Assembly: GCA_951406725.2 (NCBI GenBank)
Contig: OX597823.1
Location: forward strand, 32,674,001 to 32,738,000
DNA from: Octopus vulgaris
Lineage: Eukaryota
Length of the DNA stretch: 64,000 nt
Direction of reading: 5' to 3'
Positions within the stretch are counted from its first letter, which is position 1. Each line of letters begins with the position of its first letter. Both the position numbers and the translations under genes were made by a program. The notes beneath the pieces were generated by a model. That model searched no databases, had not been told where the DNA came from, and saw only the letters and a list, made by a program, of their open reading frames with translations. Positions 5,401-57,597 of the stretch are shown piece by piece.

Positions 5401-7980
5401 ACATTCACTTAGAATTAGTTATATTATTAGTCAAGTTCAATCATGTTTATTTTGTTTTGGAAAGTATAGAATATAAAAGCTTTCATTTTTATATTAATAA
5501 CTATGGAAGATTGGTGGAGATATTATCTGTAAGGGCTAGGTTACTATTTAGATAATTTAGGAGTTAGTTATAGGTTTACTTATTGAATTATTAATTTACC
5601 GATACTGTTTTTGTACATAGGTTAAATGTGGTTTCTTTGTTGTAGTTTAATTAATAATGTTAGTGTTTAATCCTTCCTAGAATTAAGATTGAATGAATGT
5701 GGTGATATCTAAGGTGTGTTTGTTCCTAAACAGCACTTATTTTAGTGCTGTTGACACCACCGGATTGAATGGTACTTCCCAGGTGTCGAAACCATAGTGA
5801 TATCTGTCGGGCAGCTGATGATGGAGGTGTGTTGGATTGTTGGTATGGCTGTTATTGTATACGCGGAATAGTTTTATAAGACATCCATTTGATGATGATA
5901 ATAATAATAATGTTCACGATGATTATGATGATAAGTTTTAACATCTGTTGATCTGTATGTCAGTTCAACTGCTGAAATACTATCGTTGCTGGATCAAATA
6001 CAAATTAAACCTACACTAAATTTTATATAAAATCACATATAATAATAATAATAAGTAGTTATCTGAGAAAATAGCTATTTTGCATACACTACAGTGATTT
6101 TTAGGATCAATATCTCTCTCATTCTCTCTTACTATTTAAAAAACACTTTACCAAACCTCTTCCATCCTCTTCCTTGTTATTGTTGTCAGTAGTTAGTATT
6201 TATCTATTTAAAAGTTTATTAAATGAGACTCAAGTGAAACTTTTTGTTCCAACCTTTTTAGCTATAAAATTAGTTGAATTCCATTCCATGACATTCATTC
6301 ACCATTTTTCAGTTGTTTCTTTTCTTGTATGTTTTTGATTTACTTATTGAATCTACTTAACTGTTGTTTAAGGATTTCTATTTGTGTTATACAAATGTCG
6401 CTGTGTGTGTATGTGTACATGCAGTAGTATGTTTGAGTATGGTTGTGGCTGTATGTGTATCTAGCTGTAACAGTATTTATGTGTGTGACTGTGGTTCTAT
6501 AAATATAACAGTTTGTATGTGGTTGCAGCTGTGTGTGTGTGTAGGGTTGTGATTGTGTATGTTTGTAGATGTAGCAGTATGACTCTGTGTGTGTATGTGT
6601 AGAACTGTGGATACCTGTGTGTATTGTACTCATTTTAATGTTTCATTATGTTTTGTGTTTAGTTTGTAGTAAAATATAATGGTGGGTATTAAGGAATGGT
6701 GAGTCGTAGGGTAGATTTATTTTAACCTGCTTTCCATTGTAGAAATAAGGAGAGGTGGTTCTTTATTATTGTTTTATGTTGTTTTGTTTTTCAAATGTTG
6801 AATCAAGACTATAATTCCAAGAAGTTAACAATAGCATTAACATCACCATTTTGTTATTTTTTTTCTTCTTCAGGTAACTTATTGATATTTAAATTTTTTT
6901 GGAGTGGAGGAATTCTTGTTGTTCATTCTGTTTGAGGGAAAACAGTAGATTCTTGTCTGTAAGGGTTTATCAATGGACATGATTGGTTATTTAAACGTAT
7001 TAGTTGTGTAGTTAAGATTGCTTGGCATATGATGGCCTTGCAGTTAATGTATTGTAGTGACCACATGGTTGCTATGTGGTTAAGATACTTGACTAGATGT
7101 TGGCAGTGTGTGGTACTACTGACCACATGGTATATCTATGGTTAAAGTACTCTACCATTGACAACATGATGATGGTTGGATTATAGTACAGTAATACTGA
7201 ACAGAGGATCATCAGTTCACATTCACCACTATTGAAGTCGGCTTTACAATAGTTGAGGTAATGGATTTTTGACCACTTGATCACCAATTCAGAACCTTAC
7301 TGTAGTTAAGGTGTTGCATTATTGACCACATGGTCGTAAGTTGATGCCTTAATACAATAGTGTGAGTTGGATGGGTTTCCACTTCACCAGTGCATTCCTG
7401 CATATTGGTATGGGTTAGACTATACCTCAACACACCATTCAACACTGGCATAGATTTGATTGGTCTGTATGTCATCAGTACACCATTCTCTGCTGGCATG
7501 GTTGGATAGATCTCTCATCAGTACATTGTTCTTTTCTGGTATGGGTTGGATAAGTCTGCCTTTCATCAGCACATTCTCCATAATAACCTGTACATCTATT
7601 ATATCTGAAATGTTCTTTCTAAGTACTTTCTGCATCTTTTGCTTACACTGTGTACATTGTATTGAGTTCCTGTGTCCTCTCCTCTCATGTGTGTGGGCTG
7701 TTGACTCTGATGATGTATAAGAGAGATTGACTGTGATGGGCTGGGGTCATGTACTCTATTGGAAATGTGTATTTTGGTCTCTAACTGCTGCATGTACTTT
7801 CTTTATACCCAATAACATACATACACTTTCACCTACATATGCACACACATTATATTCACTGATGTATAAATATAATCCTTATATTTACTGAGACAACAAA
7901 TGAGACTACAATTTAAAAACAGGATAGAGATAGAGGATTACAAGTTTTTCTTCACATATTTATACAAGTTTTTTACATAT

Positions 7981-8500
7981 AAAATTACTATTTCTAAATC
8001 TCACAACAAGAGATATTCAGCAACAATACTTTGGAGTAAAGATTGTTTGCCAACATAACATGGCAGTCCTGGTTTTGGACGAATGTTGCTATAATTTAGC
8101 CCCAGGAGACATCGTCACCAGCTGGCTATACGACACGATCTTTGTACTTATATTTTTAAACAAGGGAAACTAGCACCCCCACCCAGCTCAAAACAATATC
8201 TAATTTATAGATCAGTGACTAGTTGTCACCTTGGAAACTATATATTTCGAATGGGAATTTGGCAGCGTCACCTCTAGCTGAACAATTATTCTGTGCTGAT
8301 GAAAGGAAATAACCCAGAAATTGTGATACACAGATATTGTTTTGAGCAGAGTTAGGGTGCTAGATTCCCTTGTTTGAAAATACAAGGACACTGATCATGT
8401 CATATAGCCAGCTGGACACGATTTCTCCTGGGGCTAAATTACAGCAACATTCGTTCTAAACCAGGACTGCCATGTTATGTTGGCAAACAATCTTTACTCC
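7981..8500 (+). mobile_element. Penelope-type insertion (family P1): inverted 3' copy plus truncated sense copy carrying a hammerhead
   Basis: Arms of about 170 bp (8030-8200 vs 8332-8502) are inverted, with an extra ~50-nt tail only on the left arm. Hammerhead at 8290-8334. Degenerate 17-bp TSD caagttttttacatata / caagtttgttacttgta. Confidence 0.75.
8290..8334 (+). ncRNA. Minimal type I hammerhead ribozyme motif
   Basis: TCTGTG-CTGATGA-aaggaaataaccca-GAAA-ttgtgata-CACAGA: stem I, intact core, weak stem II, near-palindromic stem III. Confidence 0.65.
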
Positions 8501-11225
8501 AAGTTTGTTACTTGTAGTAATAGTTTATATATCTTCATTGCTATTGTCAATGATCTAATGCTTACTTTTCCATGCTTGCATGGGTGGGATGGAGCTTCTA
8601 TGGTCTGATGTCCTTCCTGTTACCAACTCATTCCTGTTTACAAGCAAGGTAATATTTCTGCATAACTAGACTTCATTTTACAGAGAATGGGAAACAAACA
8701 ACACTGCTTGTATGATAATGTCGATCATTTACAACTATCATGTGACATCACAAGACAAAGGGATACACCTCCCCACCAACATTGTGTGTACAGGTTTGGT
8801 TGTGTGGTAAGAAGATTGTTTCCCAACCTCATGGTTCTGGGTTCAGTCGCATCACGTGGCACCTTGGGCAAGCATCTTCTACTTTAGCCTCCAATCAACC
8901 AAAACCTTATGTGTGGATTTGGTAGACAGAAACTGAAAGAACTCCATTGTGTGTGTTCGCGTGTGTGCGTTTGTCCTTGTTTTGACATTGCATAGTAGTT
9001 GTAAAATGGTTGCCGCTGTCATACAGGCAGTATCATTCATTTCCAATATTCTGCAAGAACATGTCTAGTCATTAGGAAATGTTACCTTGCTTGGAAACAG
9101 GTGGTAATAGGAAGGGCCGCTGGACATAGAAAATCTGCCTCAATAAACTCTGTCCAACCCATGCAAGCATCAAAAGGTGAATGGTAAAATGATGATGATC
9201 AGGTGTGGTCCCAGGAATTTTTCAAAGGGAGGACACAAGGTCAGAAGGGAATACATTTCCAAGAGAAAAGGATGTAATAACATTATTTAGAAGGGCACAC
9301 TTCTTTTCTTGAGGTTGGGGGGAAGGGGTCACGTGCCCCTCAGCACCCTACCCCTTGGGTCTGCCCATGATATATTTACACTGAGATACGATGGGCTTCT
9401 CTTAGATTCTGCTTACCAAATCTACTCAATAGCCTTTGCTTGATGCCTGGGATTGTAGAAGATGACTCATAAGGTGCCATGCGGTGGAACTGAAGCCCAA
9501 ACCCCACATGGTTGGGTATTGAGTAGGTAGGAAGATAGGTAGTAAGGAAGGTAGGTAGGTTGGTAGTTAGGTAGGTAGGTTGGTAGGTAGAGGATAAGAG
9601 AAAAGGTGAGTATGCTGTATTGTTATAGATTATGAAATATTCTATCTTGTTTGCTGATGATCAGTGACTCACTAAATCTAACCATTATTTCCAATGATCG
9701 TGTTGAACATGAATGGATTACCCTAAGGTCAAGGTCACCTTTCAGTCATAGATTCCTTATTGGCAGTACATTAGAAAAACATCACAGAACTAAGAATGAT
9801 ACCTTCCTTTTTTTCTTTGGTGTATGTATGTGTGTGTGTGGTAAAACACTGCTTTTGTACTGGAAAAGATCATGTAATGTCATAAACTTTCAGGGTTAAT
9901 GGCAAGGAGTTTCCTTAATTGATCCAACATTTAAATTTGCCAACCAATCAACAAACCAACCAACCAACCAGCCAGCCAACCAGAGAATTCTGAGTGTTGT
10001 TGAATGTAAACACCTGAGAAGATAGGTTACCTTAATTATTGAATAAGGTGTGATTTAATGAAAAGGGAATTATGGTTTAGAAGATTAGAAAGCAAACTGT
10101 AAATGCTGTTGGAGTTAGTTAGGATTGTGGGAATGTGTTGTACATGTGTAATGGTTATAGAAGATACAAATGTTGAAATTTATAAATATTATCTTTTCAG
10201 TAAACACCCAGAAAATACATTTCAATGTTGACCAAGAAAATTATGTTTGAAGAGCTTCATAGAACTAGTGGCAAAGATCAATTACTTAGTTGAGAGCTCC
10301 TATACATTATATTCCAATTATTAAGTACCAATTAGTAGCAATGGCTCAGTAGACAGTAGTAAAAGCAATAAGTGGTTGGTTAATGATCTATATTAATGAG
10401 TTCTAGTTTCACTTAGTCTTTTGTGTATCTCATCTGTGGCAACCATATTGTTTGCATATGAGAGGTGCTTTTGGACTTCCACTAGAGTTTTCTTAGGTTT
10501 CTTCCTAACCAGCATGGATACAGGTGAACCAATGAGGAAGGCAATATGTGGTCAATGCCCCTTCTAGAAATAATAATGAGTTATACTAATATAAACAGGA
10601 TATTTTATGATACATGACTTCAGGTTCAATCTCACTGTATGGCTCTTTTTACAAGTATCTTTTACTATGGGCCTGGTCTCATGAATGGATTTCATAGCAG
10701 AAACTGAAAGAAGCCCATTATGTGTGTGGGTTTGTATCTCCTTGTCTTGACATTTCTTGATAGTCATAAATGGATATAATCTTCATACAGGTGGTGTCAT
10801 TTGTTTGCAATGTTTTGAGAAAACATGTCTGGTCATGGGAAAATATTGCCTTATTTGGAAACAGATGGCAGTATCCAATCATAGAATGAACTCATCTATT
10901 CCTAGATGTGGGTATCCAGTCATACAAAATCTATCTCAACAAATTTCCTCTGACATCTGCAAGCATGTAAAAATAAAGGCTTAAATGATTATGAAGATGT
11001 TGGGGATGATGATGATACTTATTGTAGCTCTCTGTTTTAAAGCAGAGGACACCAGACATGTCTAAATTATAATACTTATATGGGAGAAGTAATTATCTTT
11101 ATGGCTAATACTGATTTAATCTAATATTGGCAAATATGGTCAAATGCTTTAACATGTTCCACTCTTATTACACTTCATTTTCAAACAATAGCCATCTCTG
11201 CATTTGCTATATTAGCACTTCAATT

Positions 11226-11433
11226 AAGGTGGCGAGCTGGCAGGAATGTTAGCACGCTGGGTGAAATGCTTAGCAGTATTTCATGTCTTTACGTTTTGAG
11301 TTCAAATTCCACTGAGGTCTTTGCCTTTCATCCTTTCAGGGTCGATAAATTAAGTACCAGTTGATTACTGGGATCGATCTAATCGACTGGCCCCTACTCA
11401 AAAATTTTGGGCCTTGTGCCTAGAGTAGAAAAA
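11226..11433 (+). mobile_element. tRNA-derived SINE family B (other copies: 20598-20797 minus, 34731-34813 plus, 51659-51888 plus)
   Basis: Head ggcgagctggcagaa..gttagc, B-box gagttcaaattcc, shared central block ctttgcctttcatcctttcggggtcgataaattaagtaccag. Confidence 0.85.
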
Positions 11434-12043
11434 TATATTAGCAGCTCAAATGCTAGGCATGTCCTTTTTCCTCAAAAATATGCATTCTAAGAGATACTGT
11501 GTTTATGATATTGGCCTAAATCCTTTAGCATCAAGCTATCTTGAAAGATAATTCCAAATAATCCAAAAAACGAACAAAAAAGAAACATAAGTATATATAT
11601 TTAGTTAGATGACTTACAGAGACCATTTCTTCAAATCATCAAACATTCCAAACAACAAAACTTTTCTAGAATGCAAGGTTAAAATACATTGAATTATTCT
11701 TGAAAATTGTGAAAATTAAAAAGAAAATGTAATGAATTTTCTTAATCAGTTTTAGATGACTTGGAAAGATGTCATTTACTTATTCAGCTGATTTGCATTT
11801 GCACAAATGTGCATTTTACTGCTGAACAGTGAACAATGTGTATATGCAGCAACAGTTTGCATCAAGATTAAAGACATCAGCCCCTGCATCTCCTTCACAT
11901 TACAAGGAGTTATATAATTCAAAGAGGTAGTTCTTGTCTTTTTCAATCCATCCATGATATATATATATTCTACTTGATTTTACTTTCCTGGGTATATATT
12001 CAAATGTGTCTATGAGTCCATGTGTATACACAGACACAGTCGT

Positions 12044-12430
12044 GGGGCCACGTGGCCTAGTTGTTAGGGTGTTGCATATATTGCAAGATTGTGGTTTCAA
12101 TTCCTGCAGCAGGTGGTGCATTGTGTTCTTGAGCAAAACACTTCATCTTGCATTGCTCTGCGATCACTTCAGCACCTGATGCATGGTACACCGTGCACCT
12201 GTCCAGGCAATGTCACTTTGATGGAGGGACAATAAGTGGTTGGTTAATGATCTATATTAATGAGTTCTAGTTTCACTTAGTCTTTTGTGTATCTCATCTG
12301 TGGCAACCATATTGTTTGCATATGAGAGGTGCTTGACAGAGCTAATGTGTGGCACTTACATTTGATCACTATAAATAAATCATTTGTGCAGGTCATTCGA
12401 CAAAAAAGCTGGACCCTCATATGAGAGTCC
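12044..12430 (+). mobile_element. tRNA-derived SINE family C, interrupted by a 105-bp insertion (12230-12334)
   Basis: A-box tggcctagttg, B-box ggtttcaattcc, CORE-like tgtgttcttgagcaaaacactt. Confidence 0.7.
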
Positions 12431-14829
12431 TTAGGTGCAGGCATGGTTATGTGGTTAACAAATTTACTTCCTAACCGAATTGTTTCAGGTTCAGTTGCAC
12501 TCTGAAGAATGTGTCTTCTACTATAACCCTGGGCTGACCAAATGCTTCTGAGTGGATTTGATAGATAGAAACTGAAAGAAGCCTGTCATATATATATATG
12601 TTTACTGAATTTTCCGGGTTAACTGTAAACAATTCATCCATTTATATATATATACACACACACTCTTCTCCCTTCTCTTCTGTAGTGTCTCTCTGTTAAG
12701 ACCCTACTCTAAACACATTTTTATCCGATCCTTCCTCTCGAAACCTGCAACCTTCTGGAATTCCATCACCATTCACATTTGATCCACAACACCACCATCT
12801 CAGATATATGAACCATATGCAGAGTGTAGAATACTCTTTTCGTATCATAGTTGTGAACTGTACTCTAGTGTGGAATGTAGGATAGGATATTGGTACATAA
12901 CAACTATACTGTTCCAGATGTGAGCTGTACTCTAGTAGGTAGTGTAGCTGATTTGGGATTATAGCAACTTACTGTTAAGCATATGTGATTTGTACTCTAG
13001 TTTAAAGTATTGTATATTTGTGTACAGCAGATGTAATATCTTAGATATGTGTGGAGTATAAAATACTTATGACTAATACAACAGTGCCCTCTTAGATAGC
13101 TGATCTGTACTCTCATGTGGGTGAAGTTGCATTTTGTAATGGATCAACAACTGTTCACATCTGAAATAGTTTCTGAGATTGAAAAGGAAATTCAGTCTTT
13201 GAGTTGTGTTGTTTATTAACTGTAGTCAGCTCTAGAAGTGTAGAACTATGGCATAGAGATAGCTATTTTAATATATTAATGTTTATAATCTCATGTATCA
13301 TACACACACGCACACACCTATATATTGTCAGGTTTGGTTGTCTTACAACACAGCGAGATAATCTGTGTGGTAACTCAGCTTACAGTCTGTTCAGTAATTC
13401 TCTCTCCAGCTTCAGCCATTGACTCATCAAGTGTGTGTGTGTATTATATGTCTACATAACACACACACACACACACACATTTTAATGTTGATTTCTGCAG
13501 AAACAAATACTTGTGGACTTGATCAAGGTAGAGTGAATGTAACTCTTTAGGATTTGCTGGATAAATTTCATGGAATTAAGAAATGAAGAATGTTTTTATG
13601 GCACATAAAGCATGTCTCAAAACAGATAAAACAGAAATATGTAATCTTCAATATGTTCTCCACTACTTATGTTGGAATTATGGACAGGAAACTTGAACTC
13701 TACTCACACATCTTTTCAAGTTACAAACTTTCATTTAATTACAGTAGAAGTATGTTATGTGTTGATTTAGTCCTTGAAAATACCATTTTTTTTTCTGGTA
13801 GGCAGGATGGCTCAGTGGATAAGGTATCAAACAGTCTGTTCAGAGGTTATGGACTCAAATTTGCCACAGGCTAATGGTTTACTTAAGACAGTACAGTATT
13901 GTGTTAATTCATCTACGAACCAAAAGTAGATACTGCACCATCTGGGTATGTTAGCTGCAACACACCAGCATCTTACTCAGAGGGAGAGACTTCTCTCAAT
14001 TAGTTTGCACCAAAAACAAAAAAAAACAAAAGGAAAAGAGAGCACTGATTCTTGAAGACATTCCCTCCATCAGTTGTTGGACTTTACATCTTCACAATCT
14101 TCCTGTAGTTCTAACTCAATATTTTTCACTCTGTCACTTTAACTATAGTATACTGTGTTTCTGTATAGTATAGTATACTGTGTTTCAGAAATATTTATAT
14201 AGTCGGTAGAAATATGTAAAAGCTCTCCCAAATCACTTCTTACCATCTTTAAAAGAAAAGGGAAGGAAAAAATATTTTAGATAATGTACATGATCTAAAG
14301 ATGTATTATAGATACATTATATTTATATAAAAAATGGACAGTCATGACTGAAACACTTTCGATTAATGATTAATAATTTATTGGAACAAAGCTGACCTAG
14401 GCCTAAACAACAAAAACAACCTAAAGTGATTTCTATTATAAAAGTAAAGCTTTCTCTCATTATATCTAACATCTCTCTGCTAGAATAACACACATTTGTT
14501 TGGGTATAGGCATACTACTATTGCTGAGAACTTTGCTTTACAGCTTGGTGGTATTAGATTTGATCCCAGTGCGCAATGGCACCTTAGTCAAGCATCTTCT
14601 ACCATAACGTCAGCAGGTTGACCAAAGCTTTGTGAGTGTAATTTGACTGATGGAAACTATAGAAGCCTGGAAGAGAAACCAATTATAATTTTGGGTCATA
14701 GAATTTATCTATTACCTGGTTATATATCATTACCTTGTCTTTTGTTCTTTTAGTAGTGTAAATTTGGAATATATAGGCCAGATCTAAGGAAAAATTACAT
14801 TTTGTGTGGAGAGGTGGAATGGCTGAGAG

Positions 14830-15990
14830 GTTAATTAATATTGTGTGGAAGCATAACTAATAAAGGAAATTAGCTTAGATAAGTTGCATTTGGTTTTGTA
14901 TCAGGATTGGCTTCAATTGATCCCCTTTTGAAGTGAGCAATCCACAGCAAATGCTCTGGGGAAAGAGCAAGCCACTATAATTAGCATATGATGATGTTTG
15001 CTAGCAGTGGTGGACTGGGTCTAAAAGTATTGGTTGCGAGGAGACTGGGGGGGGGGGCTCACCTGCAACTACAAGGGGGCCCACCTACAACTACAATGCT
15101 ATCCTTTTTTTTTTCCTTTGCTAAAAGTATACTTTTCCAACTGTCTACAAATACAGCCAGGCTGTAATAATGCATTCTTCCAGGAGTGAATAAAAAATTC
15201 TCGAACTTGAGGGGATGGACCCCTTAGAAACTAACATGGTCCCCCATATATGGATTCTAATGGCACGGGTCCACTTACCATCAGGTAAGCTAGCAACCTG
15301 GCCAGCCCACCACTGTTTGCTAGTATTCCACACTCAGATAGTGTCTTAGAAAACTTGGTGTAACTGAATGGCTTGTGAGAGCTGTGCCAGCCATATACAG
15401 TGATACTGTTAGCTAAGTGAGGGTTCTGCAATGAATTTTAGTGTAGCTAGATGTTCATCAAGGTTTGACTCTGCATCTATTTCTGTTGGCTATAGTTCTC
15501 CAGGCAATAACAAAAGAGTTTGGGACTTGTTACCTGTGGGAATTCCTGTATGCTGATGACCATCTGTTGAAGAATGAAAGAAGAAATTCCAAATATGGGA
15601 GCAAAACTTAGACTCATAAGGGCAAACCAAATATCTAAAAGAGACAAAAGTTTGAATTAGAAAGAAAGAAAATAGAACACTACTGCCATCTGTAGGAAGT
15701 TGTTATGTTAGATGTGCAGAACAAGAAAAGCAATGAATTCCTTGCATTGTACCACATTGTAAACTGTAAGTGCACAGTGGTGGAATCATAGGTAGGCTGA
15801 TGGAAAAGGGAGCCTTTGTATGTAGCAGATAGACAGGAGTAGTTTATAATAAGAATGCCTTTGAAATACATTCTTTCAAATGTCTGGAGTAGTTTCTGGT
15901 AGTTTATGGCTTTTGTTACTTAGGTGACTTAATTAGGAATGGAAGAGGGAGTTGTGAAAGCATAGTAATTAGAGTAAGAATAAGGTGGCA
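14830..15990 (+). mobile_element. Highly degraded RTE-like LINE reverse transcriptase fragment (host of the hAT MITE)
   Basis: Recognisable DVHQG and WEFLYADD (tgggaattcctgtatgctgatgac, about 15537-15560) RT motifs; many stops. Confidence 0.65.
15005..15315. mobile_element. hAT-type MITE (second, truncated inverted copy at 44257-44533)
   Basis: TIRs cagtggtggactgg / ccagcccaccactg; perfect 8-bp TSD tttgctag (14997-15004 and 15316-15323). Confidence 0.9.
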
Positions 15991-15996
15991 ATTGAA

Positions 15997-16830: not shown

Positions 16831-16863
<33 letters not shown>

Positions 16864-19376: not shown

Positions 19377-19414
<38 letters not shown>

Positions 19415-20958: not shown

Positions 20959-21017
<59 letters not shown>

Positions 21018-26000: not shown

Positions 26001-27060
26001 GAAGGAGTCTTGACTTTCATAGTCTCAATGCTAAACAATAAACATTGCAGAACTTTCCTTTACTAAATGGCATAAAATGCAATAAATAAATATATACTGA
26101 GTGTTGGTAGAAATATATGAAAGTTATTGATTTGAATTATTGCATATTTACCAATACTCTTGTGGTTCCTTTCAACATTTCCTTTTGTTACCAAAATCTT
26201 TAAAATATATTTTCAAGCCCATCATATGACTATTTTGTTCTAGCTATAGCCATTCTGTCTTCTTTTTGAACCTATACTCATATTTATTTCCACAATATAT
26301 TTTTGTTTCCTCTTCAAGACTGTAAGAAATTGTTTAAAGAATATTTGCTTCTTGTTGCCTCTGAAAAGATGCTGACATGTGATAACTGTTGTGCCTTGAC
26401 TTGGCATTACCTTCACTCTGGCCATCGTTAGAGTTACAGACATACAATACTCAACTGGACAGTAGAGGAAAGGCAACAAACCCAAGCTGCATTATGGATT
26501 CTCTCTTGTTAACTCTTTTCATACCAACCTGTCCAAGACTACTTCTGGTTCTATGATATGAACTTTCTCTTTTTAAGAGATCTAAATTAAAACCCTCCAT
26601 TAAAATTTCACATTTTTACTTCAGACACCAGCTTAATAGAAACAAACTAATTTTACTAAATTTTTTCATTGTTTTCACAATTAATTGGAACAAAAGGTTT
26701 AACAACTTTATGCCAGAGCATGCAATGCAGTTGTCAACAAGATGAAGACTTATATATCTGGAGTACTGGATCTGTGGATTATACTCAGATATTTAACTAG
26801 CTTCCTATGTACAACAGAATTGGCAAGAGATTATACTCAGTTTCCATCTTCCAAATCCACTCATGGGTCTTTTGTTGGTTTGGGATTTTTGTAGAAGACA
26901 CTTGCCCCCACCCCACCAGGTATCAAGTGAGACTAAATCTGAAACCATGCAGTTGGAGAACAAACTTCTTAAACAGCCATGGCTACACCTACCTATCCAT
27001 ATTCTACATTATGATGTTTATGTGTAGTAGTAGCAGTATATTCCAAATATGTAAGCAGTA

Positions 27061-27427
27061 GGAATAAAGATTGTTTGCCAACATAACATGGCAGTCCTGG
27101 TTTAGGATGAATGTTGCTGTAATTTAGCCCCAGCAGACATTGTCTCCAGCTGTGTATCACGATTTCTGCATTATTTCTCTTCATCACCACGGAAATTGCG
27201 ATACACAGATATTGTTTTGAGCTGTGTGGGGGTACTAGATTCCCTTTGAAAATATAAGGACACAAATCATATCATATAGCCAGCTGGAGATGATGTCTCT
27301 TGGATCTAAATTACAGCAACATTCGTCCTAAACCAGGACTGTCATATTATGTTGGCAAACAATCTTTACTCCAAAGTACTGTTGCTGAATCTCTCTCATT
27401 GTGAGATTTACAAATAGTAATTTTCTA
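27061..27427 (+). mobile_element. Penelope-type insertion (family P1), rearranged inverted pair
   Basis: Same sequence as 7981-8500. The tail is on the right arm. Two broken hammerhead halves face each other at 27150-27210. 12-bp TSD atgtaagcagta (27049-27060) / atgtaggcagta (27428-27439). Confidence 0.75.
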
Positions 27428-28609
27428 ATGTAGGCAGTAATCCATTATAACTCATAATTGGGCTTTGTAGAGGGTCAGAGCAAGATCATGGCTAAAGTAT
27501 TTTCTGACCTAAAAGAGGAAGACCAGTGTTTTGCAATGCCAATTTGTGAGTGTAGTGTTTTATGTGTGAGAATGATGTCATAGAAGGATTCTCAAATTTT
27601 CTATTTGCATTATAATATACACATGGTTAATCAAGATGTTCTGGACATAAATGAATTGATGCTTTATATAAAGGAGATGGAGATGTATAATGAAAACTTG
27701 GTTTTCATGCTGACTCCATACAGCAAAGGTCATAGTACAGTGGAAATTACCATTACCATTTTAACATCCACTTTTCCATACTTGCATGGGTCAACTGGAG
27801 TTTATTGAGGTAGATTTTCTATAACTAGACACCCTTTCTGTAACCAACCCTCACTTGTTTACTTCAAGGTAATATTTCTCATTGGTCAGATGTGTTTTCC
27901 ACAGAAGACTGGAAGCAAGCAACTTCACTTATATGATGGTGATGTAAAATCTGTTGAAGAATCTTAGGTAGTAGCTACCATTACTCACAAGAAATAGAAT
28001 CTCCTATATTTATTTTAATTTCAACCAGATCTTCTCTTAAAAAAGTGTTTGTCATACAAGAATTATTATTTTTGTAAGGTATGTGTCTGTCTACCTCAAC
28101 TTAACCTTGGTCTCTTTCTACCAAGCACTTCAAATCTATATTCAAGATCTCTGACCTGTATTCTCTTGACTGGCTCAGAAGTCTCATTCCTTATATATAC
28201 CCAATTATCCTACACAGGCATGTTAAATATTCACATGTTTGTAATATACATATGCTAATTATATATGTGCAGTTGACATATACAAGTATGTTAAATATGC
28301 ATCTAATTATCATATGCAAATATTACTATATACATATTTAATAATACACACATACTAATATTTACCTATTTGACATATACACACATAACAATATGTCTAG
28401 TTATCATAAATACATCCTAATATATATCTATTTAACATACATATATAGCTGATTATTATACAAAGGCAGCTTAAATATACCATTTAGTTATTTTATACAT
28501 ACCTATTTAATACACATACTAATGTACACTTAGTTATTGTAAACATTTTGATATATGTTTAGTTATTAAATACTCATGTAATTATAGCTACTTAAAATAT
28601 ATGCACATA

Positions 28610-31710: not shown

Positions 31711-32765
31711 AGTGAATAAATTGTCGTCTAAATTGCACAAAAATGAAAATAACATTGATATCTCATTTTAACAGTTATACTTACCAAAATTACATAAAAA
31801 TATCTTGAAATACTAAAGAGTAAATTTATTTAATAGAATTGTCATTGGCTTTAACCACGGCCTCCAGATGACTTCGGAATCTCCTGCAACTCTTCTGGAC
31901 AGTCTCCTTGCTTAAGTTGGTGAATGCTGCCATAATCCTTGCTTTCAGTTTATTTTTGGTGTTACAAAGAGTTTTGTTGGCCTCTTGCTTAACTGCACCC
32001 TACACATAATAATTGAGAGGGTTGCAGTCTGGGGAGTTAAGTTGCCTGATGTGGTCGCAAAAATTGCCTGACAGCCATGACTGGGTACTCCTGCTTGTGT
32101 GACATGGTGCAGAGTTGTATTGCTAGATATAGGGTCTTCCAGCAGCCACCCTCTTCACCCAGTGCAGCACTACCTCCTCCAGGCACTTTATGTAAACCTC
32201 TGTTGAGTATGAGGCCGTGTGAGAATATGAATGGGGTCATAATGTCACCATCACTAGTGATCACTCCAAACACCATGATGTTGACTGGATGTTTAATTTT
32301 TATCACTCTTAGTACATGTTTTGAGGACACAGCAAGCCAATGGTTGTTCTATGTGTTCACCATCTAATCCTAGCAGAAATTTTTCTCTTCTGAGAAAAAC
32401 TGAAGCATGTTTGCTTGGTGGGGATGTTTGAATTTGTTCAAAAGCTTTGTAGTGCAATCTTTCCTCTTGTCCTTGATGGCTTGGGATACAAATTGGCCCT
32501 TTCTCATCTTGAATGAAGAATTCTGAATGTCTTTATGCACTAGCTGCCTGATAAGAAACTCAGACACTCCCATGTCCCTGGTAATGGACCTGATTGTCTT
32601 GGAGGGATCGTTGTCAACCAGGACCAGGATCTCACCAACAAATTCAGGAGTTCTTTTCTTATCAGAACCATCAAAGTGAGTTTTCAGAGCTGCCATACCT
32701 TCGTAATCACCATTAGACTCATCCAACTCTTTCTGAATCCTCTACACCGTCCTCAGATTAATGTT
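31706..32765 (-). mobile_element. Tc1/mariner-superfamily (maT/DD37D-like) transposon relic, 5' truncated
   Basis: ORFs 32370..32726 (HTH-like SIRSITRDMGVSEFLIRQLV; FFSEEKNF) and 32037..32330 (KHPVNIMVFGVITSDG); NSPDCNPLNYYV*G motif near 32000-32040; end next to a (TA)n tract. Confidence 0.85.
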
Positions 32766-45696: not shown

Positions 45697-45761
45697 TATA
45701 TGTATTTCTGTAGAGTGATGAACTGTGATACCAACTTGTTGAATCAGTTTCCAGCCAAGTA

Positions 45762-47011
45762 CAAGGGGTGTTCATTAAAGATTTCCCCTGACCCACTTTC
45801 CAAAGACAGGGATAAACAAAACTTGGCATAATTATTAGTCCTTCTCTATAAAGCCACCACCAATGGTGACACATTTCTCCCATCGCTTTATGCAGCTGTG
45901 AAGACCTCATCTGTAGAAGTTGGTAGGTTGTGTCTGGAGCCAAGACTTTATCTAGGAAATAGGTTCATCATCATCCAAAAAGTGCTCCCCCTTCAAAAAA
46001 GACTTCATGGTTGGAAAGAGGTGGAAGACAGATGGTGTAAGGTTGGGAGAGGAAGGGAGATGAGAAAAGATTTCATAGCTGCAGGAATGTGCTTTCATCT
46101 GGGCAACATGTGCATCGTGAACTGGGTGTTGTCTTGCAGAAGGCAGATTCCTTTGGCCTCTTTACTTTGATGGCACCCTACAATTTCTGCAGCAGAGAAG
46201 CATAATATGCCCCATTAAATGTTGTGCCCTTTGCCAGAAAATCCATCATCACTACTCCATGCTAGTCCCAAAAGACTGTGAGCATCACCTTGCCTGCTGA
46301 GGACTGGACACAAGCCTTCTTTGAAGGTGGTGAGTTGTCATGCTTCTATTGCTTCAACTGGACTTCAGTCTCAGGATCATATTGATGGATCCATGTTTCA
46401 TCCTGTACGATAAGTCTGCCGAAAAAGTCCTCCTCATTTTCTTGGCACATTGCCAAAATAGCTTGGGTGCAATTGACTCATTCCTGCTTCTGAAAAGGTG
46501 TGAGCATCCGGGGAATCCATCGTGCAGACAATTTCTGCATGTGCAAATGGTCATGAATGATTTTTTTCCCATGGACCCTATACTTATCTTCACTTCTTGG
46601 GCTAGTTGCCAAATAGTTATGCAGCGATCTTCCAAAATGGTGGCTTCTACTTTATGGATGGCATCGTCATCAATGGCAGAATGTGGTTGCCCAGGAATAG
46701 GAACAGTTTCCACTCTGCTTGACTATGTCATATGATGGTGCATCGTCACCATAAACTTCTTTCATCTTATCAAAAGTTCCTTTTGGTGTACAACCTTTCA
46801 AGTATAAGAACCTGATCACTGTTCTGCATTCAACTGTGTCCATTATAACACCTTAGACCATTTCAGTTGCAGTAAAAGACAAACAAGTACGAGTGGAAAG
46901 CTGCAATTTATAATGTAACATGTGGAGACATGTATGACTATATCTGTACAAGTTTTATTTCCTGCAATAACTGGAAGTGGGTCAGGAAAAATCTTAAAAG
47001 AACACCCCTCG
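45762..47011 (-). mobile_element. Full-length but decayed mariner transposon
   Basis: TIRs caaggggtgttcattaaagattt.cctgacccact / agtgggtcaggaaaaatcttaaaagaacacccctcg; TA TSDs; 1250 bp. Frameshifted transposase with EDRCITIWQLA, ARWIPRMLT, LQDN, SPNLTPSVFHLF and RWEKCVTIGGGFIEKD*. Confidence 0.93.
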
Positions 47012-49674: not shown

Positions 49675-49758
<84 letters not shown>

Positions 49759-50218
49759 CATATATATATATATACATACACACACACACACACATAATGT
49801 ATATTTATGTTTTTGTGTGTATGTGTTTATATATTGTTTCACTGTTCTTTCTTGCATGCTTTTATATGGTACCATACCTGTATTAATATCAGTGGTGAAA
49901 ATGAATTATATGTTTGCATCTTCATAGTTTAACCAGCAACATTTCAGCCATATTTCTGGAAAAGAACAATTTATATTTTCTGAAAAATGATTCATTTTCC
50001 AGAAGGAAACTGTCCATGTTTATCAATTTAGAAAATACAATCTACTTGTATAATTATTATTTTCTCTTATAAAATGTTTTTAATTATTAAATGAGTATTT
50101 TTAAACTTTATTTTTCTGATGTTCTAGTTTTATTAGAAAATTGTACAAAACAAATAAGAACAGCTTCAAAAAGCACATCAAATTTCCTAGGTTACTTTTT
50201 TTCTGTTCTTTTCTTGAA

Positions 50219-50267
<49 letters not shown>

Positions 50268-50344
50268 GGGAATCTATTTGCAAATATTTTGTTTCCTTTT
50301 GTTGTTGTTGTAAAATACAATTTCTTATTTCTTTTGTTTGACAG

Positions 50345-50424
50345 TGTGCAATTTTGTGGTCCATGATAGATGTCTGAAAACAGTTGTCTCAGCCTGTTCA
50401 AGCATTGCCACAAATTTGATCAAA
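50345..50424 (+). CDS. DGKQ: Diacylglycerol kinase theta, internal exon (C-terminal half of C1A domain)
   Basis: Acceptor tttcttttgtttgacag, donor AAA|gtaagt. 80 nt, phase 1 in and phase 0 out. Translates (V)CNFVVHDRCLKTVVSACSSIATNLIK, matching the C-x4-H-x2-C-x7-C half of a C1 zinc finger and the DGK-theta C1A-C1B linker. Confidence 0.93.
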
Positions 50425-50659
50425 GTAAGTCTACTTTTTATTTACCATATTTGATGGCTTATAAGCCACACCTTTTTTCACCCCAAAATAGCTTTAAAAA
50501 TCCCTCTGCATCCAGTGCACACAATGTAGGCACAAAACTCACTCAAAACAGTATGTATGTTTACAAAATGTGTGTTGCCATCTGTTGGTGAACAATCACC
50601 TACAGTAGGTTTATATCGAATGTGGATGCAATAAATTCCTTATAATTACTGGTAATAAT

Positions 50660-51077
50660 GGATCTTTTCAGTTTGAACGGCAGTTTTTAACATAATTTCT
50701 AGGTAACTAAAAAATTTTAAACTTCATATACTGGTAGAATGTGTTCATAAAACATCTTATTCTCTTGGCCTTATTGAGAAAATTCTATAGTTTGTAAGAT
50801 ATTTGTTGTTTTTTTTTCTTCAATTTCTGCAATTTCAACCAATCACTGACGTCTATTGAGGTAAAAAAAACATTCTGTGCCGTATGAATATGTCCCTCGT
50901 TTAAGAAACAGATTGGGTTTATTTACATTTGTGAAGAAAAAAAGATACCCTTCCCCCTAACCCTAACTAACCCTAACACAGATTGAAATGCAATAGATCG
51001 ATACTAGGGTCATAATTATGGGTGACAATTTCATATGACACCGCTAGAAAAAACTGCCGTTCAAACCGAAAAGATCC
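50660..51077. mobile_element. MITE with 29-bp GG-initiated TIRs and 8-bp TSD (Merlin-like)
   Basis: GGATCTTTTCAGTTTGAACGGCAGTTTTT / AAAAACTGCCGTTCAAACCGAAAAGATCC (one mismatch); TSD gtaataat / gtaataac. Confidence 0.85.
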
Positions 51078-54000
51078 GTAATAACATAAAGTTACACAGG
51101 TAAGTGGAGGAATTTAAACATTATTTTAGTGGTAATTTATTTTACAAAAAGTATAGCCTAGGCTAGGGTGTGTCCTATGTTCTCGTGCATCTTAAAGGCC
51201 ATCAGATATGGTAGTCTCCACTAAGAGTAACCTTGCAACTATTTTACTGTTTATCATCACATTTTAAACTTTACAAGTGCCTCCACCACATCACCACTCC
51301 ATAACTCACAGTGTTTATCTTTTTGTCTTTTACTTGTTTCACTCATTGAACTGCAGCCATGCTGGAGCACTGCCTTGAAAGATTTTTAGTTGAATAAATA
51401 AACTTTAGTACTTTTTTTTGTTTTTTATTTTTCTTTTGAAGTCTGGTACTTTTCCAAACTGCCCAGTTACAGGGATGTAAACAAACCAGTACTGATTGTC
51501 AAATGGTTGGGAGACAAATACACACACACACACACACATATGTAATCATCATTTAAGAACTGTTGTCCATTCTGGCATGAGTTAAACGGTTTAACAGGAT
51601 CCAGTGAGCCATGGGGCTGCATCATGTCCCATGTCAGCTTTGGTATTGTTTCCTTAAGGGCGCTGAGCTGGTAGCAACATTAGCATGCCGGCCGAAATGC
51701 TTAGCGGTATTTCGTCTGCGTTACGTTGTGAGTTCAAATTCCGCCGAGGTCGACTTTGCCTTTCATCCTTTCGGGGTCGATAAATTAAGTACCAGTTACG
51801 CACTGGGGTCGATGTAATCGACTTAATACCTATGTCTGTCCTTGTTTGTCCCCTCTGTGTTTAGCCCCTTGTGGGTAATAAAGAAATAGGTTTCTAAGGC
51901 TGGATGTCCTTGCTAATGCCAACCACTTTACGCAGCGTACTGGATGCTTTTTGTTCAGCCAAGTAACTTTGCAAGACAGGAAAGGACAAGAAAAGGGAAG
52001 AGAAAAAATAGAGAAAGGGAAAGACTCTTTTGACTAGGGGGATTTGAGAGGGAGGAGAGGTAATTTTTATGCCAGGACCAAGTTGGTGTCTTGCTACAGA
52101 GAAAATACTGGGCTACTCCACATTCATATAAGGGTGGATGAGAGTCTCTGGGGAAAAAGGTAAGATGGTAGTGATGAGCAAAGCCTTCATGAAGCAAGAG
52201 ATGGTACAGGAGGGGAGGAGTGTTTTATCGAGGTGGGAGGAGAGAGTATCACATGGTTAGAGATTAATGTAGTAAAGAACAGAAGTGGAAATGCAGCTTC
52301 AAGGGAAATATCAGTTGGGCAGGGGCTAAGATGAGAAGAATAGAAATGGCTCAGGAATGATAGTTCATTGACCATATTAATTTATGATGCACTAGTTGGC
52401 TTAGAGCTATAAGAGAAGACATTACTGAACAGTGGGACTGAACCCAAAATCACATGATTGCAAAATAAGCTTCTTAACCACCTGGCCATGCCCTTTGTTC
52501 ATCTTTTGATGTTTTTGTTGTGGCAAGAGTCATTGACACCCCTAAGAGATTGGAAGAATGGACTAGCTGAACTCTTATTAAGAGTAGTGTATTGGTTGAG
52601 ACAGGACATTCAGTGGGAGTTGTTGAGGGGGTGTTTTGGAGTCTCGTGAAGTATATCGTGTAAACACATTGATTTTACCTCCACTTCATTAATTATATAT
52701 CCAACGTTTGTCTTGGATATTCATATCATATTTCTATTTAAACTTGCTGATACAAATCTACCTGAGACTGCCCTTGCTGCTTCTATGATAACAATTGCTA
52801 GTTTTAAAGTGACCTAAATTAACCTTTCATGTTAATTTATGTTTGAAATACTAGTTTAATAATGACTCAGTTATTTTATACCATCTTCATTATTTTCAAA
52901 AGTAATTGAAACAAAAGCAATGTATTTCAATAGAATTATGATAATGAAAGAGTTAAAACACAGAGCCTTTGTTACCATGAATTTTGAAAATAATGGAGTC
53001 TTTTGTTAAAATAACTTTACCATTATTAAATTGGTATTTAGAACATAAATTACTGTGAAATTTTGATAGAACCTTTATCTAATTTAGATCACTTTAAAAC
53101 AGGAAGTTAATGTCATAGAACCAAAAGTGATCTCAGATGGTTTGACATGAAAAAGGTTAACATCCATTACATACCATGAGAAGTTAGATATATCTGCAGC
53201 ACATAATATCTCATTCCTGTATCATGACTTCAGTCCATTATTTTTACCAGTTGTTCTCAATTTGTCGTCATTCTGTTTATCATCATTTAATGTCTGTTTT
53301 CCATGCGGGCATGGGTTGGATGGGTTGACAGGAGCTGGCCAGATGAAGAGCTGTCCAGGCTCCATGTCTGTTTTGACATGGTTCCTATGACTGGACGCCC
53401 GTCCCACTGCTTTACAGAGTGAACTGGGTGCTCTTATGCAACACAGGCACAGGTGCATTTCCATGGCACTGGGTGCTATTTATGTGACATCAGCACCCAC
53501 AAACACGCAAGATAAAGAACGCTCTGCTGGAGTGGGTTGCAGGGGACAAGCTTGTATGCAAAGACAATCATGTTTTTACTTATCTTAACATGTCTTTTCA
53601 AGCACAGCAAACTGCCAGGAGTTTCGGTCCTTCTGTAAGTCCCAACTTTTGTAGATCCTTTCTCACCACTTCATTCCATGTCTTCCTGGGTCTACCCCTT
53701 CCATATGCTCCCTATACAATTAGAGATCAGCACCTCTTGATGCAACTGTCTTCATTCATACACATTACATGACCCTACAAGCACAGTCTTCTCTCTTGCA
53801 TATTACATTTGATACCCTCTATATCCAGTTCTTTTCTCAAATCACTTACACCTGGTCATGTATGCACACTGATATTACCCATCCAGCAAAGCATACTGGC
53901 TTCATTCCTTTCAAGCCTTTGCATGTCCTCTGTAGTCGTAGCTCATGTCTTATTGCCATGTAGCAGAGCTTTTCTTACACAAGCATCATACAATCTGCCT

Positions 54001-54774
54001 TTCACTCTAAGGGTGAGGCCCTTCATTACACTCTGAACTTCACCCAGCCCAAGAATAAGCTGGGCGAAGTTCAATGGTTTTTAATTGTTTAAACTATTTA
54101 GAGCAGTTCTTTACTTGGCAATGGCTACACTGCTGCTGTTGCTTCTTCTTGTAGTAACAGTAGTAGCTCTGGTTTATGAGTACTTTATTTCTCTTTGCCC
54201 TTATTCAGCCAGTGAGATCTTTTATAGCTTCTCTTGTTGAAAAGGGGAATTAGTCATAGCTATTAATTTCATATCATCCTGATGATGAGACCTGTAAGAT
54301 GAAAGTTGTCAGTTCTAATGTAAACTTCATTATGCTGATTGCTTCCTTGCATAAATGGTGGAATGATTTTTTTCAGTTGAGGGGGTAATTAGAAGCATTA
54401 ACATCTGAAGAATGTCAACACCTTCCTCAGAACCTATTTATATTTGATATAGTTTCCTCACTAAGAATATCCTGATATTTTTGGCATGTACTCTTATTCC
54501 AGCCGTGTTGGGTTGTGCAACTGAACTTCAGAGACCTTTCAGCAGTATCAAACAAGAGTTGTGTAGTGATAATGGTAGGATGGGTATTTCTTGATGTCAG
54601 CTTTGCTTCATCTCATTTCTCAATTGAAACCCTTCTAAGATGGTGGTGCTGGTGGTGGCAGTGTTGAAAGTAACCTTCGGGTAGTGTATTTCAGCCCACC
54701 ACATACTGCCTAATGTAACAGCATGTAATGGGAAAGAGTGTAACAGAATGATTGATTAAAGAGGAGTATCTTGT

Positions 54775-55001
54775 AGTAAAGATTGTTTGCTAACATAACA
54801 TGGCAGTCCTGGCTTAGGACTAATGTTGCTGTAATTTAGCCCCAGGAGACATCGTCTCCAGCTGGCTATATGATACGATCTGTGTCCTTATATTTTCGAA
54901 CAAGGGAATCTAACACCCCCACTCAGCTTAAAACAATATCTGTGTATCGCTATTTCCGGGTTCTTTCCCTTCATCAGCACAGAATAATTGTTCGGCTAGA
55001 G
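54775..55001 (-). mobile_element. Penelope-type insertion (family P1), single arm with intact hammerhead core
   Basis: Perfect 14-bp TSD gaggagtatcttgt (54761-54774, 55002-55015). Minus-strand CTGTG-CTGATGA-AGGGaaagaaCCCG-GAAA-TAGCGATA-CACAG at 54940-54982. Confidence 0.8.
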
Positions 55002-55774
55002 GAGGAGTATCTTGTTTTAATGGATGGGTTAAGACAGTTTGGCATCTCCTCGCCTATAATGTCTTCATATCCATATTTCAGCAGCCTGAAATGTCTGTCT
55101 GTCTGTTTAAGAAGCACAAGTGTGAAGGGGTGGAAATAGTGAGAGACAAATATAAGCAGTGAAAACTTCCACTGGCAGAATGAGATAGGAATGGTTACAT
55201 TACTCAGCACTGAAACTTCACTACACCAATATCATAATATGAAGTATTATATGTAACATTTCTGTAATCCTCCATAAATATTCAATCACTTAACAAATCG
55301 GCCAAAGGAAATGAATACCAAATGAAACCTCTCAAAATTCGAACCTGTGATAGTTAGGAATACCTACATCCAGTTTTGCACTATTTTCTGATAACATATT
55401 AATAAAAAAATGATAGAAGATTAACCTAGTCTGCATAGGAAATTAGAATGGAACACTATCACCCCCCCACACACACATACACACCATGACCTATGACAGA
55501 ATAAGATCCCCATAAACTAATAATATGAAACTAATACAATACACAAATAAATAAATGGAACTAAATAACTATATACATTAACAAAATAAATTAAATACAA
55601 AAAGAAAGAAAAGAAAAAATAAGTAGATATAAATAAACAAATGAACAAAATAAATAAAAGCAAATTAAATGAACATGTATAAACAGGGGATACTAATAAT
55701 ACAGTCACATTCCCACACACACACACACACACTTACTAAACATAGACAGACACAGGAGTATATGAATACGTTAA

Positions 55775-56410
55775 GTAAAGACACATACAATAGGAATACA
55801 AAATGGCTGATCATTAGTAAGGAGAGACACACAAAAAAGAAAGAAGAAAGCAAAGGACCACTGGTGAGGTCACAGAAGTGTGACGAAAGAACTCTGGCCA
55901 AAACACGATTAATATAAAATAAAGCTGAAGCAAGTGAACACCAAATATATAGTGCATGTGTTTTCATTGGCAACATGACCGTCCCCAAATTTAAATAATC
56001 ATATTTGTATATAATCATTTACTGTACTCATTATTAAGCTAATTTGATTATAAGTAATTATATAATAATTAGTGCTTGAATACTTCTAGTCTTTACAATA
56101 TACCAAATATTCTTTCTAGAATATATTTGTTGTGCAAGATTTTTTATGTGAAGTCGTGTGTTGAAACAGATATTGTTATATTTCGGAATGGTCATTTTGC
56201 CAGTTTAGCCAATAAAAACACACGCACTATATATTTGGTGTTACTTTTGCTTCAGTGTTATTTATTTTTTACATTAATCTTAATCTTATTTCGGCCAGAA
56301 TTCTTTCGTCACACTCCTGTGACCGCATCAGTGGTCCTTTGTTTTCTTCTTTCTTATTTGTGTCTCTCCTTACTAACTGTCAGCCATTTTGTATTTCTAT
56401 TGTATGTCTT
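55775..56410. mobile_element. Two convergent copies of hammerhead-bearing repeat family P3
   Basis: 55775-55990 is inverted relative to 56180-56410; hammerhead motifs at 55856-55899 (+) and 56293-56336 (-). Confidence 0.7.
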
Positions 56411-56594
56411 CATTTGCACAGGGGTAATCAGTGACATGGTCATCCTGTTGGCATTAGATACTTGGTTCAAGTTCCACTAATGGATCTGTTGCTGTTTTAT
56501 GTACTTGACATTCTGTTTCTGATTAAAAACATTTCTTTTATACATATATTTTTTTTTGTTTTTTTATCTCTCTCTTTTTCTCTCTTTCCTATAG

Positions 56595-56697
56595 AACCCT
56601 GTTGCCCACTGCTGGTCAGAACCTGGGCACTTCAAGAGAAAGTTTTGCAATGTCTGTCGCAAAAGACTGGAAGACAGTCTTGGAATACGGTGTGAGA
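56595..56697 (+). CDS. DGKQ: Diacylglycerol kinase theta, internal exon (N-terminal half of C1B domain)
   Basis: Long pyrimidine tract ...ctctttcctatag, donor GAGA|gtaagt. 103 nt, phase 0 to phase 1. Translates NPVAHCWSEPGHFKRKFCNVCRKRLEDSLGIRCE; PVAHC...KRKFCxVCRK is characteristic of DGK-theta. In phase with both neighbouring exons. Confidence 0.95.
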
Positions 56698-56902
56698 GTA
56701 AGTTTTACAGTGATTTCTTTTTTTGTCTCCATTTCTTGTTTCTTTCTCATAAACTTTGGTTGACTTATAAAGTATATAAAAGTCATTAATGACAAATTCC
56801 TGTGTTGTAAAATATGTCATGTTGCAGAAATAGGATGATAGAACCTTAATTTCTTTGTAATAAATATGCCGTATGCTGTAGAAAAAGGTTTAAAAAATTT
56901 AT

Positions 56903-57597
56903 ACAGTTGAAAATCCTTCTTCTCAAACCTCCAAAATCTGAAAGCTTTTGAACACTGACATGACTAGCATCATTACTTATACAATACTTTAAAAATAAAA
57001 TGCTGACTTAGAAAATTGCTATTTTTAAATCTCACAAGAGATATTCAGCAACAGTAATTTGCAGTAAAGATTGTTTGCCAACATAACATGGCAGTCCTGG
57101 TTTAGGACAAATGTTGCTGTAATTTAGATCCAAGAGACATCGTCTCCAGCTGGCTATACGACACGATCTGCCAGGACTGCCATGTTATGTTGGCAAACAA
57201 TCTTTAAAAATAAAATGCTGACATTTATCAGTTTGCATTTTATTCACCTATTATCAGATTTAATGCTTTGTTTTATACCTTACATAAAACCTAACACCTG
57301 TATTGTAAAAAATAAAACACAGATGTCAGACATGTATTGTAATCTTTTAATTAAAATATCACATCATAAGTAGAGACTGATGACTTACCTTTCTGATAGT
57401 AATATACTTTAAAAATTATTAAAAATTCAGGGTATATATGTATAAACAATAATATGAAATATAGATGGACACTGTTTAGTCTTGGAATCGATCCCGAAGC
57501 TGTCCTATTTTGTAAATGCAAATATATAAATATTTTGAAATCTAAAAAACATTTGAAATTCACAAAGCTTTTGATCCCAGGAATTTTGGATCAACTG
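56903..57597. mobile_element. pogo/Tigger-like non-autonomous element interrupted by a P1 insertion
   Basis: Ends ta-cagttga... and ...tcaactg-ta; interior ccaaaatctgaaaa and atctaaaaaacatttgaaattc resemble pogo/Tigger MITEs. Confidence 0.55.
57008..57206. mobile_element. Penelope-type insertion (family P1): long inverted tail plus 36-nt sense stub
   Basis: 21-bp TSD ctttaaaaataaaatgctgac (56987-57007, 57202-57222), overlapping the element end by microhomology. Confidence 0.8.

Follow-up and report, generated by a model that had tools for sequence, protein, structure and literature searches.

Insertions of a 350-bp retrozyme in the octopus genome are predominantly head-to-head pairs of arms, one of which ends at a fixed internal site, A, and the other at a second one, B, and these A+B pairs probably arose when a Penelope-like RT/GIY-YIG enzyme primed reverse transcription on the two nicked strands of the target as a single coupled event. 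The family was read from four insertions, mutually 87–90% alike, in a window of 64,000 nt (Octopus vulgaris contig OX597823.1, 32,674,001 to 32,738,000), and their features are collected in Table 1. The four insertions and the 12–21 bp duplications around them, as reported in the initial annotation, are present in the sequence; its description of the copies as hammerhead-bearing holds for copies 1 and 3, while copy 2 has lost a core base and copy 4 the whole motif. Copies 1, 2 and 4 are head-to-head pairs and copy 3 is a single arm. A site-A junction at caaacaatcttta(ctcc) was found in all four copies, and the opposite arm of the three inverted ones extends to gtaattttcta, which is site B. No ORF of at least 120 aa was present over the four copies, no Pfam match was obtained for a short exon at 56597, and no empty site of copy 4 was found in the contigs of four runs.

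Table 1. Features of the four insertions in the window (u, coordinate within the 350-bp unit)
Feature	Position	Strand	Remark
Copy 1, left target-site duplication	7965..7976	+	12 bp, pairs with 8500-8511, 1 mismatch
Copy 1, left arm	7977..8201	-	u132 to site B
Copy 1, right arm	8199..8499	+	u349, unit junction, hammerhead, site A; 3 nt common with duplication
Copy 1, type I hammerhead	8291..8333	+	CTGATGA at 8296, GAAA at 8317; core intact
Copy 1, predicted hammerhead cut	after 8328		
Copy 1, right target-site duplication	8500..8511	+	
Copy 2, left duplication	27049..27060	+	12 bp, pairs with 27428-27439, 1 mismatch
Copy 2, left arm	27061..27194	-	ends at site A; internal deletion; hammerhead C3-to-G at 27187
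Copy 2, right arm	27191..27427	+	u115 to site B
Copy 2, right duplication	27428..27439	+	
Copy 3, left duplication	54761..54774	+	14 bp, pairs with 55002-55015
Copy 3, lone arm	54775..55001	-	about u70 to site A
Copy 3, type I hammerhead	54940..54982	-	CTGATGA from 54977; core intact
Copy 3, right duplication	55002..55015	+	
Copy 4, left duplication	56987..57007	+	21 bp, 5 of them common with element
Copy 4, left arm	57008..57170	-	u191 to site B; hammerhead absent
Copy 4, right arm	57171..57206	+	u261 to site A; last 5 nt common with duplication
Copy 4, right duplication	57202..57222	+	

At another locus of the same genome (L027), three units stand head-to-tail with a period of 350, so the unit has no fixed 3′ end. 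The 'true 3′ end' assumed initially beyond the site-A junction is thus not an end; the right arm of copy 1, starting at u349, likewise reads through it. In unit coordinates the hammerhead occupies u91–133, site A about u296–303 and site B about u350–5, that is, A and B lie ~53 nt apart and both are internal to the tandem unit. The unit has 38% GC and its longest stop-free frames are 47 (+) and 73 (-) codons, hence no ORF, and the RT plus GIY-YIG frame that an autonomous EN+ PLE would have is missing. The circular fold of the unit is strongly self-paired (z -4.2 vs. 60 shuffles) and puts site A in a hairpin loop closed by 4 bp; locally, the A–B stretch folds with no more than ordinary stability (z -1.14), and the MFE fold of the 71-nt hammerhead region is not significant (z -0.73). 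Of 102 anchored regions, in which some loci are represented twice, 79 have the hammerhead core intact. Helix II has 3 bp over an A.G mismatch, which is C.A in a sister family, and stem III is palindromic, as had been read from the window (ATCGCGAT, with CpG-type decay). The sister family is colinear with the first (214/335 aligned bases identical, 64%) and keeps the hammerhead core, its stems I and III, palindromic loop included, being changed in a compensating fashion. An Rfam search of the window gave no match at gathering scores, and that of the first-family unit gave five chance matches, none a hammerhead.

Genome-wide, ~2500 first-look candidates were obtained as a lower bound, and exact matches to a 34-mer of the unit numbered 659. 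Contig depth summed over three DNA runs was ~23,000x the flank depth, which is not a copy number. RNA reads cover the unit without a pile-up of starts or ends and cross its junction, a crossing explained by genomic tandems and read-through.

As described in the accessible text of PMC7229834 and of bioRxiv 10.64898/2026.07.22.740005, metazoan non-LTR retrozymes have a tandem unit of 150–450 bp (350–390 bp in mussel) with a type I hammerhead. The octopus repeat has in common with them a 2-bp helix III with a palindromic tetraloop, a GC content under 50% and the lack of an ORF, together with a duplication of >4 bp, strong circular self-pairing and a Penelope-like element (PLE) as the proposed mobiliser (PMC7229834; bioRxiv 10.64898/2026.07.22.740005). 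Judged on its sequence, it fits the class in PMC7229834 as a non-coding, non-LTR retrozyme with a predicted type I hammerhead. Among Xenopus retrozymes, only one of nine cleaved according to the available text of Li et al. (bioRxiv 10.64898/2026.07.22.740005). In contrast to the arrays of the retrozymes described in those sources, most octopus inserts are short head-to-head pairs. Its 3-bp helix II also differs from the minimal PLE hammerhead, for which the part of Cervera and de la Pena 2014 (PMC4209133) consulted gives a long helix II (7–8 bp, Schistosoma examples) and G10.1–C11.1.

With EN+ PLEs, in the portions of PMC3846280 and PMC8557442 available, the octopus family shares a head-to-head inverted, 5′-truncated copy, a tail at one end, a duplication of about 8–14 bp and a hammerhead upstream of the ends, while the PLE tail is 30–40 bp vs. 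~53 nt here, where an RT/EN ORF is lacking. The initial proposal of a non-autonomous, retrozyme-like family with a Penelope-type layout (inverted 5′-truncated arm, one-sided tail, duplication) is supported. That the family is a cephalopod one is probable, as the only relative found for a protein nested in related repeats is an Octopus vulgaris one.

The combination of ends was counted in a main sample, the first 100 of the 659 exact 34-mer matches in genome order (C1–C3); the query stops ~20 nt before site A, and the sample was not selected for ends. It comprised 30 loci and 60 stretches spanning 65 further matches, and after exclusion of two matches present in other sets, the last three matches and three duplicates, 87 insertions were left. 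The results showed that 145/161 of the 3′ ends fell into two 20-nt bins (u291–310 and u341–10), so the junction claimed at caaacaatcttta(ctcc) is fixed beyond chance across the genome. The fixed internal priming that had been proposed thus stood as regards the fixed start, but there are two such sites, one for each DNA end, rather than one. Head-to-head pairs made up 74 of the 87 insertions, a share that is too high because the 34-mer favours less decayed and two-armed copies, although it has no bias for A+B over A+A or B+B. Sixty of these pairs were A+B, two A+A and four B+B, and eight had an unclassed end. A+B therefore accounted for 60/66 classed pairs, vs. 0.50 under free choice (p 1.3e-12), while the 13 single arms ended at A in six cases, at B in six and elsewhere in one. 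Three similarity-selected sets gave A+B in 19/22 (a set that had been chosen for B), 10/18 and 10/19, the remaining pairs having one unclassed end each apart from a single A+A in the 10/18 set, and in the sister family nine of ten pairs, scored by eye, were A+B. RNA reads from a related organism lose depth at both sites, and contigs from four runs stop matching at A, with unrelated flanks beyond it. The one-A-one-B rule indicates that the two primings are not independent, even though six homotypic pairs exist.

Duplications, called at a score of at least 9 with flank swaps as control, were detected in 78/116 pairs of all sets, compared with 19/300 swaps, and were 12–14 bp long in 55 of the 78. 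Single-arm copies had one in only 5/29 cases, which speaks against the coupled reading. A filter of at least 20/25 matches before the junction and a duplication of 9–16 bp was passed by 137 of 150 classed junctions. Among these, AA occurred at -3,-2 outside the duplication in 25/68 A ends and 30/69 B ends (background 0.097); AA outside both ends places NTT directly 3′ of each nick, which recalls the ATT preference of the Poseidon element PAc from Anolis (Frangieh et al. 2024, PMC11167929, available in part).

Microhomology between RNA and target, measured with a column-majority reference standing in for the template, averaged 1.56 nt at A vs. 0.79 with permuted targets and 2.16 nt at B vs. 1.04 (0/2000 each). 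When the B arm of the same insertion served as the template, the value at A was 2.0, vs. 1.69 with other arms (13/2000, n=59). The initial annotation held that the target resembles the missing tail and that priming occurs by RNA–target pairing at a fixed internal site, a version in which extended pairing would also choose the target. The resemblance is real in so far as matches of 1–4 nt occur above chance, isolated cases reach 5–7 nt, and duplication positions 5–9 at B show a slight excess (136/345 vs. 116, p 0.004). At A, the same positions gave a non-significant 112/340 vs. 99 permuted (p 0.06), 18/68 junctions had no match at all, and the pairing, short throughout, is found at B as much as at A, B being internal too and behaving alike. 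Whether the target end decides between A and B was also tried: a comparison with swapped ends gave 29 vs. 25 of 63 (p 0.12, not significant). Extended pairing is accordingly very unlikely as the basis of target choice. Because the matches are short and swapped target ends fit about equally, a few base pairs tune the register of the start without choosing the target.

For 86 simple A+B pairs the reach of the two arms was compared: in 50 the A arm extended further upstream and in 24 the B arm did, 12 pairs were equal, and the lengths did not correlate (rho 0.03); since each arm reaches further in many pairs and the lengths are uncorrelated, neither is a fold-back of the other. These data bear on a model of the type in PMC3846280 and PMC8557442 (both available in part), with priming once at B, a jump to antisense RNA or self-priming, and an A end left by endonuclease resolution. 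One tailed and one tail-less end would follow from it by construction, and RNA reads are indeed present on both strands, from a library that is possibly unstranded. However, the A arm carries sequence missing from the B arm in the 50 pairs above and so was not copied from the first cDNA, lone arms are split evenly between A and B, the AA motif recurs with comparable microhomology at both kinds of junction, and in vitro both ends of the tail are RT starts (PMC11167929, in the portion available). Single priming at B is thus an improbable account, although a separate antisense template for the A arm is possible.

Inversion points were distinct in 82 of 84 cases. Long inverted arms, present in most copies, would also befit a DNA element with terminal inverted repeats, whether a cut-and-paste MITE or a foldback element, but such an origin, scarcely credible here, was ruled out by ends unequal by ~53 nt, duplications varying from 9 to 16 bp, the spread of inversion points, the tandem units and the covarying hammerhead. 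Symmetric fixed repeats with constant duplications, or random 3′ junctions, the alternatives named beforehand, are contradicted by the same inequality and by the clustering of ends. At the points where arms meet, the overlap averaged 2.03 nt vs. 0.72 expected (0/2000; 70 clean of 84 junctions).

Sister arms had non-majority bases in common in 79/530 cases, compared with 7.5% after shuffling (maximum 11.3%), although their overall identity (91.7%) and polymorphic-site identity (69.8%) were below the shuffle maxima of 91.9% and 70.8%. This suggests that both arms derive from a common template and hints faintly at the same RNA molecule, against which it can be said that local conversion or same-age sources could yield shared variants. 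Two enzyme–RNA complexes on separate RNAs, acting in order with the first strand primed at one site and the second at the other, would avoid two polymerases on a single template, and sister arms barely more alike than random pairs agree with this. Such complexes require a separate source of asymmetry, though, while the excess of shared variants and the better microhomology with the own B arm point to related templates, and a fully free choice by two complexes is rejected by the 60/66 count; we regard separate RNAs as unlikely.

As for the state of the template, 52/151 arms cross the ribozyme cut site and 11 are longer than one unit. A cleaved monomer was considered and rejected, as arm ends do not peak at the predicted cut (five arms vs. 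a mean of 5.0 elsewhere). Arms crossing the cut, arms exceeding one unit and the absence of an end pile-up together argue for an uncleaved, multimeric or circular template; the template is likewise uncleaved in PAc, in the part of PMC11167929 available.

The reading that we prefer, coupled priming of both strands, can be laid out as follows. A PLE enzyme, probably a dimer, would sit on the A–B stretch of an uncleaved multimer or circle and nick both target strands 5′ of NTT, ~12–13 bp apart. One 3′ overhang would be placed on A and the other on B, with a few base pairs adjusting the register. By geometry, both strands would have been primed on sense RNA, because both outer junctions join a target 3′ end to antisense cDNA. 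Both cDNAs would be extended in the upstream direction, either on different units or with one strand displaced by the other, and after terminating at unrelated points they would be joined via microhomology. Single-arm copies may be events in which one priming failed, or remnants. In L1 twin priming, both target strands prime as well, and an inverted product with microhomology at the inversion and a flanking duplication results. In L1, however, the upstream position at which the second primer anneals varies and the two arms are free of overlap, whereas in the octopus family both starts are fixed and the same upstream sequence is copied twice.

The dimer, the single RNA and the identity of the enzyme are inferred. 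Like the octopus family, PAc has two internal RT starts bounding the tail, with A in an AC-rich hairpin loop, and it cuts and extends both strands at an ATT-like target as a predicted dimer (PMC11167929, in part). Two points from the same source weigh against coupling: the sites at which PAc starts in vitro are described as lacking homology with the cut DNA, in contrast to the 1–4 nt matches above chance found here, and no strand difference in the start is reported; its available text does not compare the paired ends of a single event.

Penelope-type integration in general may be an obligate coupled double priming, by one dimer on one circular or multimeric RNA with two fixed sites, one for each end, an extension that we hold tentatively. 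If true, a single rule would cover the one-sided tail and inverted pLTR of PLEs and the spread of animal retrozymes, its record here being thousands of genomic copies. The class of element is known, and the octopus family is a further member, with a PLE integration footprint on a retrozyme. The mechanism behind inverted PLE copies and one-sided tails is termed undefined in the literature, as far as its accessible text goes, and in the available portions of PMC3846280 and PMC8557442 the tail is called optional and ascribed to endonuclease resolution or self-priming, without a count of pairings. Likewise, the published retrozyme case for PLEs as mobilisers has so far been argued from co-occurrence and likeness to pLTRs alone, and its available text gives neither a map of junctions nor a target motif, nor does it mention inverted pairs. 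The one-sided PLE tail is thus already known qualitatively, whereas a count of end pairing with its tests, or a proposal of fixed-site double priming for PLEs, was not found in the literature searched, whose coverage excluded supplements and most subscription papers. A countable A/B rule discriminates between the published models and is testable in the purified PAc system, and a protein able to write RNA at each end of a staggered cut would be of interest for genome writing.

A mobilising partner was sought with the PF01541 profile, which gave 6136 GIY-YIG candidates in the genome, of which 150 were scored. The genome carries an intact 781-aa RT/GIY-YIG family and relatives, and the motif-bearing candidates carry a linker finger of the Neptune/Nematis type, a clade label used in PMC8557442 (available in part). 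No autonomous PLE sharing unit sequence turned up when 30 GIY-YIG loci, along with 20 stretches of greater length, were compared (150/6136 candidates scored), the best match being 42 nt (E 0.016), and no hammerhead of their own was seen in the 781-aa PLE copies. The intact PLEs whose ends were read sit in (TA)n, compared with only 6/150 junctions of the retrozyme family. Two further leads to a parent were rejected: a loose end recurring at u15 in RNA reads had no match in the genome as a parent ORF, and the sequence shared upstream of u70 proved to be zinc-knuckle inserts with their own 13–16 bp duplication. Longer forms of the unit contain LINE-like zinc-knuckle inserts and not an RT plus GIY-YIG ORF.

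These zinc-knuckle (ORF1-like) elements, several distinct ones of 1.6–2 kb, occupy a single place in the unit, u70–82, with a duplication of 13–16 bp; they are sometimes stacked or 5′-truncated, and the equivalent position in the sister family is occupied as well. One zinc-knuckle frame gave no alignment with a neighbouring RT-linked frame. At two loci, L231 and L265, the 5′ part of one arm lies inside such an insert, an arrangement that probably reflects reverse transcription of a composite RNA starting at A or B. The inserts resemble Tx1 families that target other transposons (PMC4494074, available in part), and related zinc-knuckle elements form 1.7-kb arrays at other targets.

Retrieved loci L325-L354 represent a sister retrozyme family with a unit of ~355 bp, which shares 64% identity with the 350-bp unit of the family studied and has the same two junction sites. 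As judged by eye, location in (TA)n was commoner in the sister family, and because its inserts lie more often in (TA)n, its partner enzyme may be another one than that of the family studied. Where helix II of the predicted hammerhead begins, a G10.1-C11.1 pair is the norm, but both retrozyme families show a mismatch there (A.G and C.A; unit positions u104-116; window 8303-8316). Hammerhead-like motifs of other families were also observed (Table), several of them with a long helix II. Further, a loose end after u15 (L027:1734) was recurrent and highly consistent in RNA reads from two organisms, and its sequence was absent from the searched genome, G000.

The retrozyme units themselves carry insertions, as distinct RT-less zinc-knuckle elements of 1.6-2 kb were found at a single site, u70-82 (L261-L270, L231, L264, L267), ~25 nt upstream of the hammerhead. 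These inserts are accompanied by duplications of 13-16 bp and have a common 3′ UTR ending in AATAAA; zinc-knuckle inserts are also present in the sister family (L272-L279). Some were likely copied together with their host retrozyme. The 5′ end of copy 3 (window 54775-55001) lies at ~u70, the insertion site of these elements; arm ends at ~u70 were not enriched in the main sample of 87 insertions.

Units of 1.7 kb stand in head-to-tail arrays at L311-L313 (Table), L314 and L316-L318, and many of them hold a ~500-aa open frame that includes a CCHC knuckle. Within 30 kb of sequence C5, no fewer than 17 of these frames were counted. At L314, a repeated 19-nt target piece stands between the array units. 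Only a single relative turned up in a database search.

A young Penelope-like family (L183-L188, L181-L182) retains an intact RT/GIY-YIG frame of 781 aa, preceded by a second frame of ~479 aa without Pfam match. Its pLTRs are identical and it ends in (TA)n, and a canonical hammerhead was not found in the family.

Table. Positions of array, hammerhead-like and window features
Feature	Sequence	Position	Recognised by
1.7-kb unit array (L311-L313)	G000:C5	100950000-100979999	
Hammerhead-like motif	L188	6230(-)	
Hammerhead-like motifs	L189	1918, 1423(-)	
Hammerhead-like motifs	L196	350, 3534, 6706	
Hammerhead-like motif	L276	2572	
Hammerhead-like motif	L277	3172	
Hammerhead-like motif	L255		
Short exon with splice signals	window	56597-56697	
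Decayed fragment	window	32370-32741	computed search
Decayed fragment	window	46354-46722	eye
Decayed fragment	window	62853-63761	computed search

The window also contains decayed transposase-like and LINE endonuclease fragments (Table). Its short exon, as read, resembles part of a cysteine-rich C1 domain, and a Pfam search of the exon gave no match. Copy 4 is intronic and lies ~300 bp downstream of this exon.
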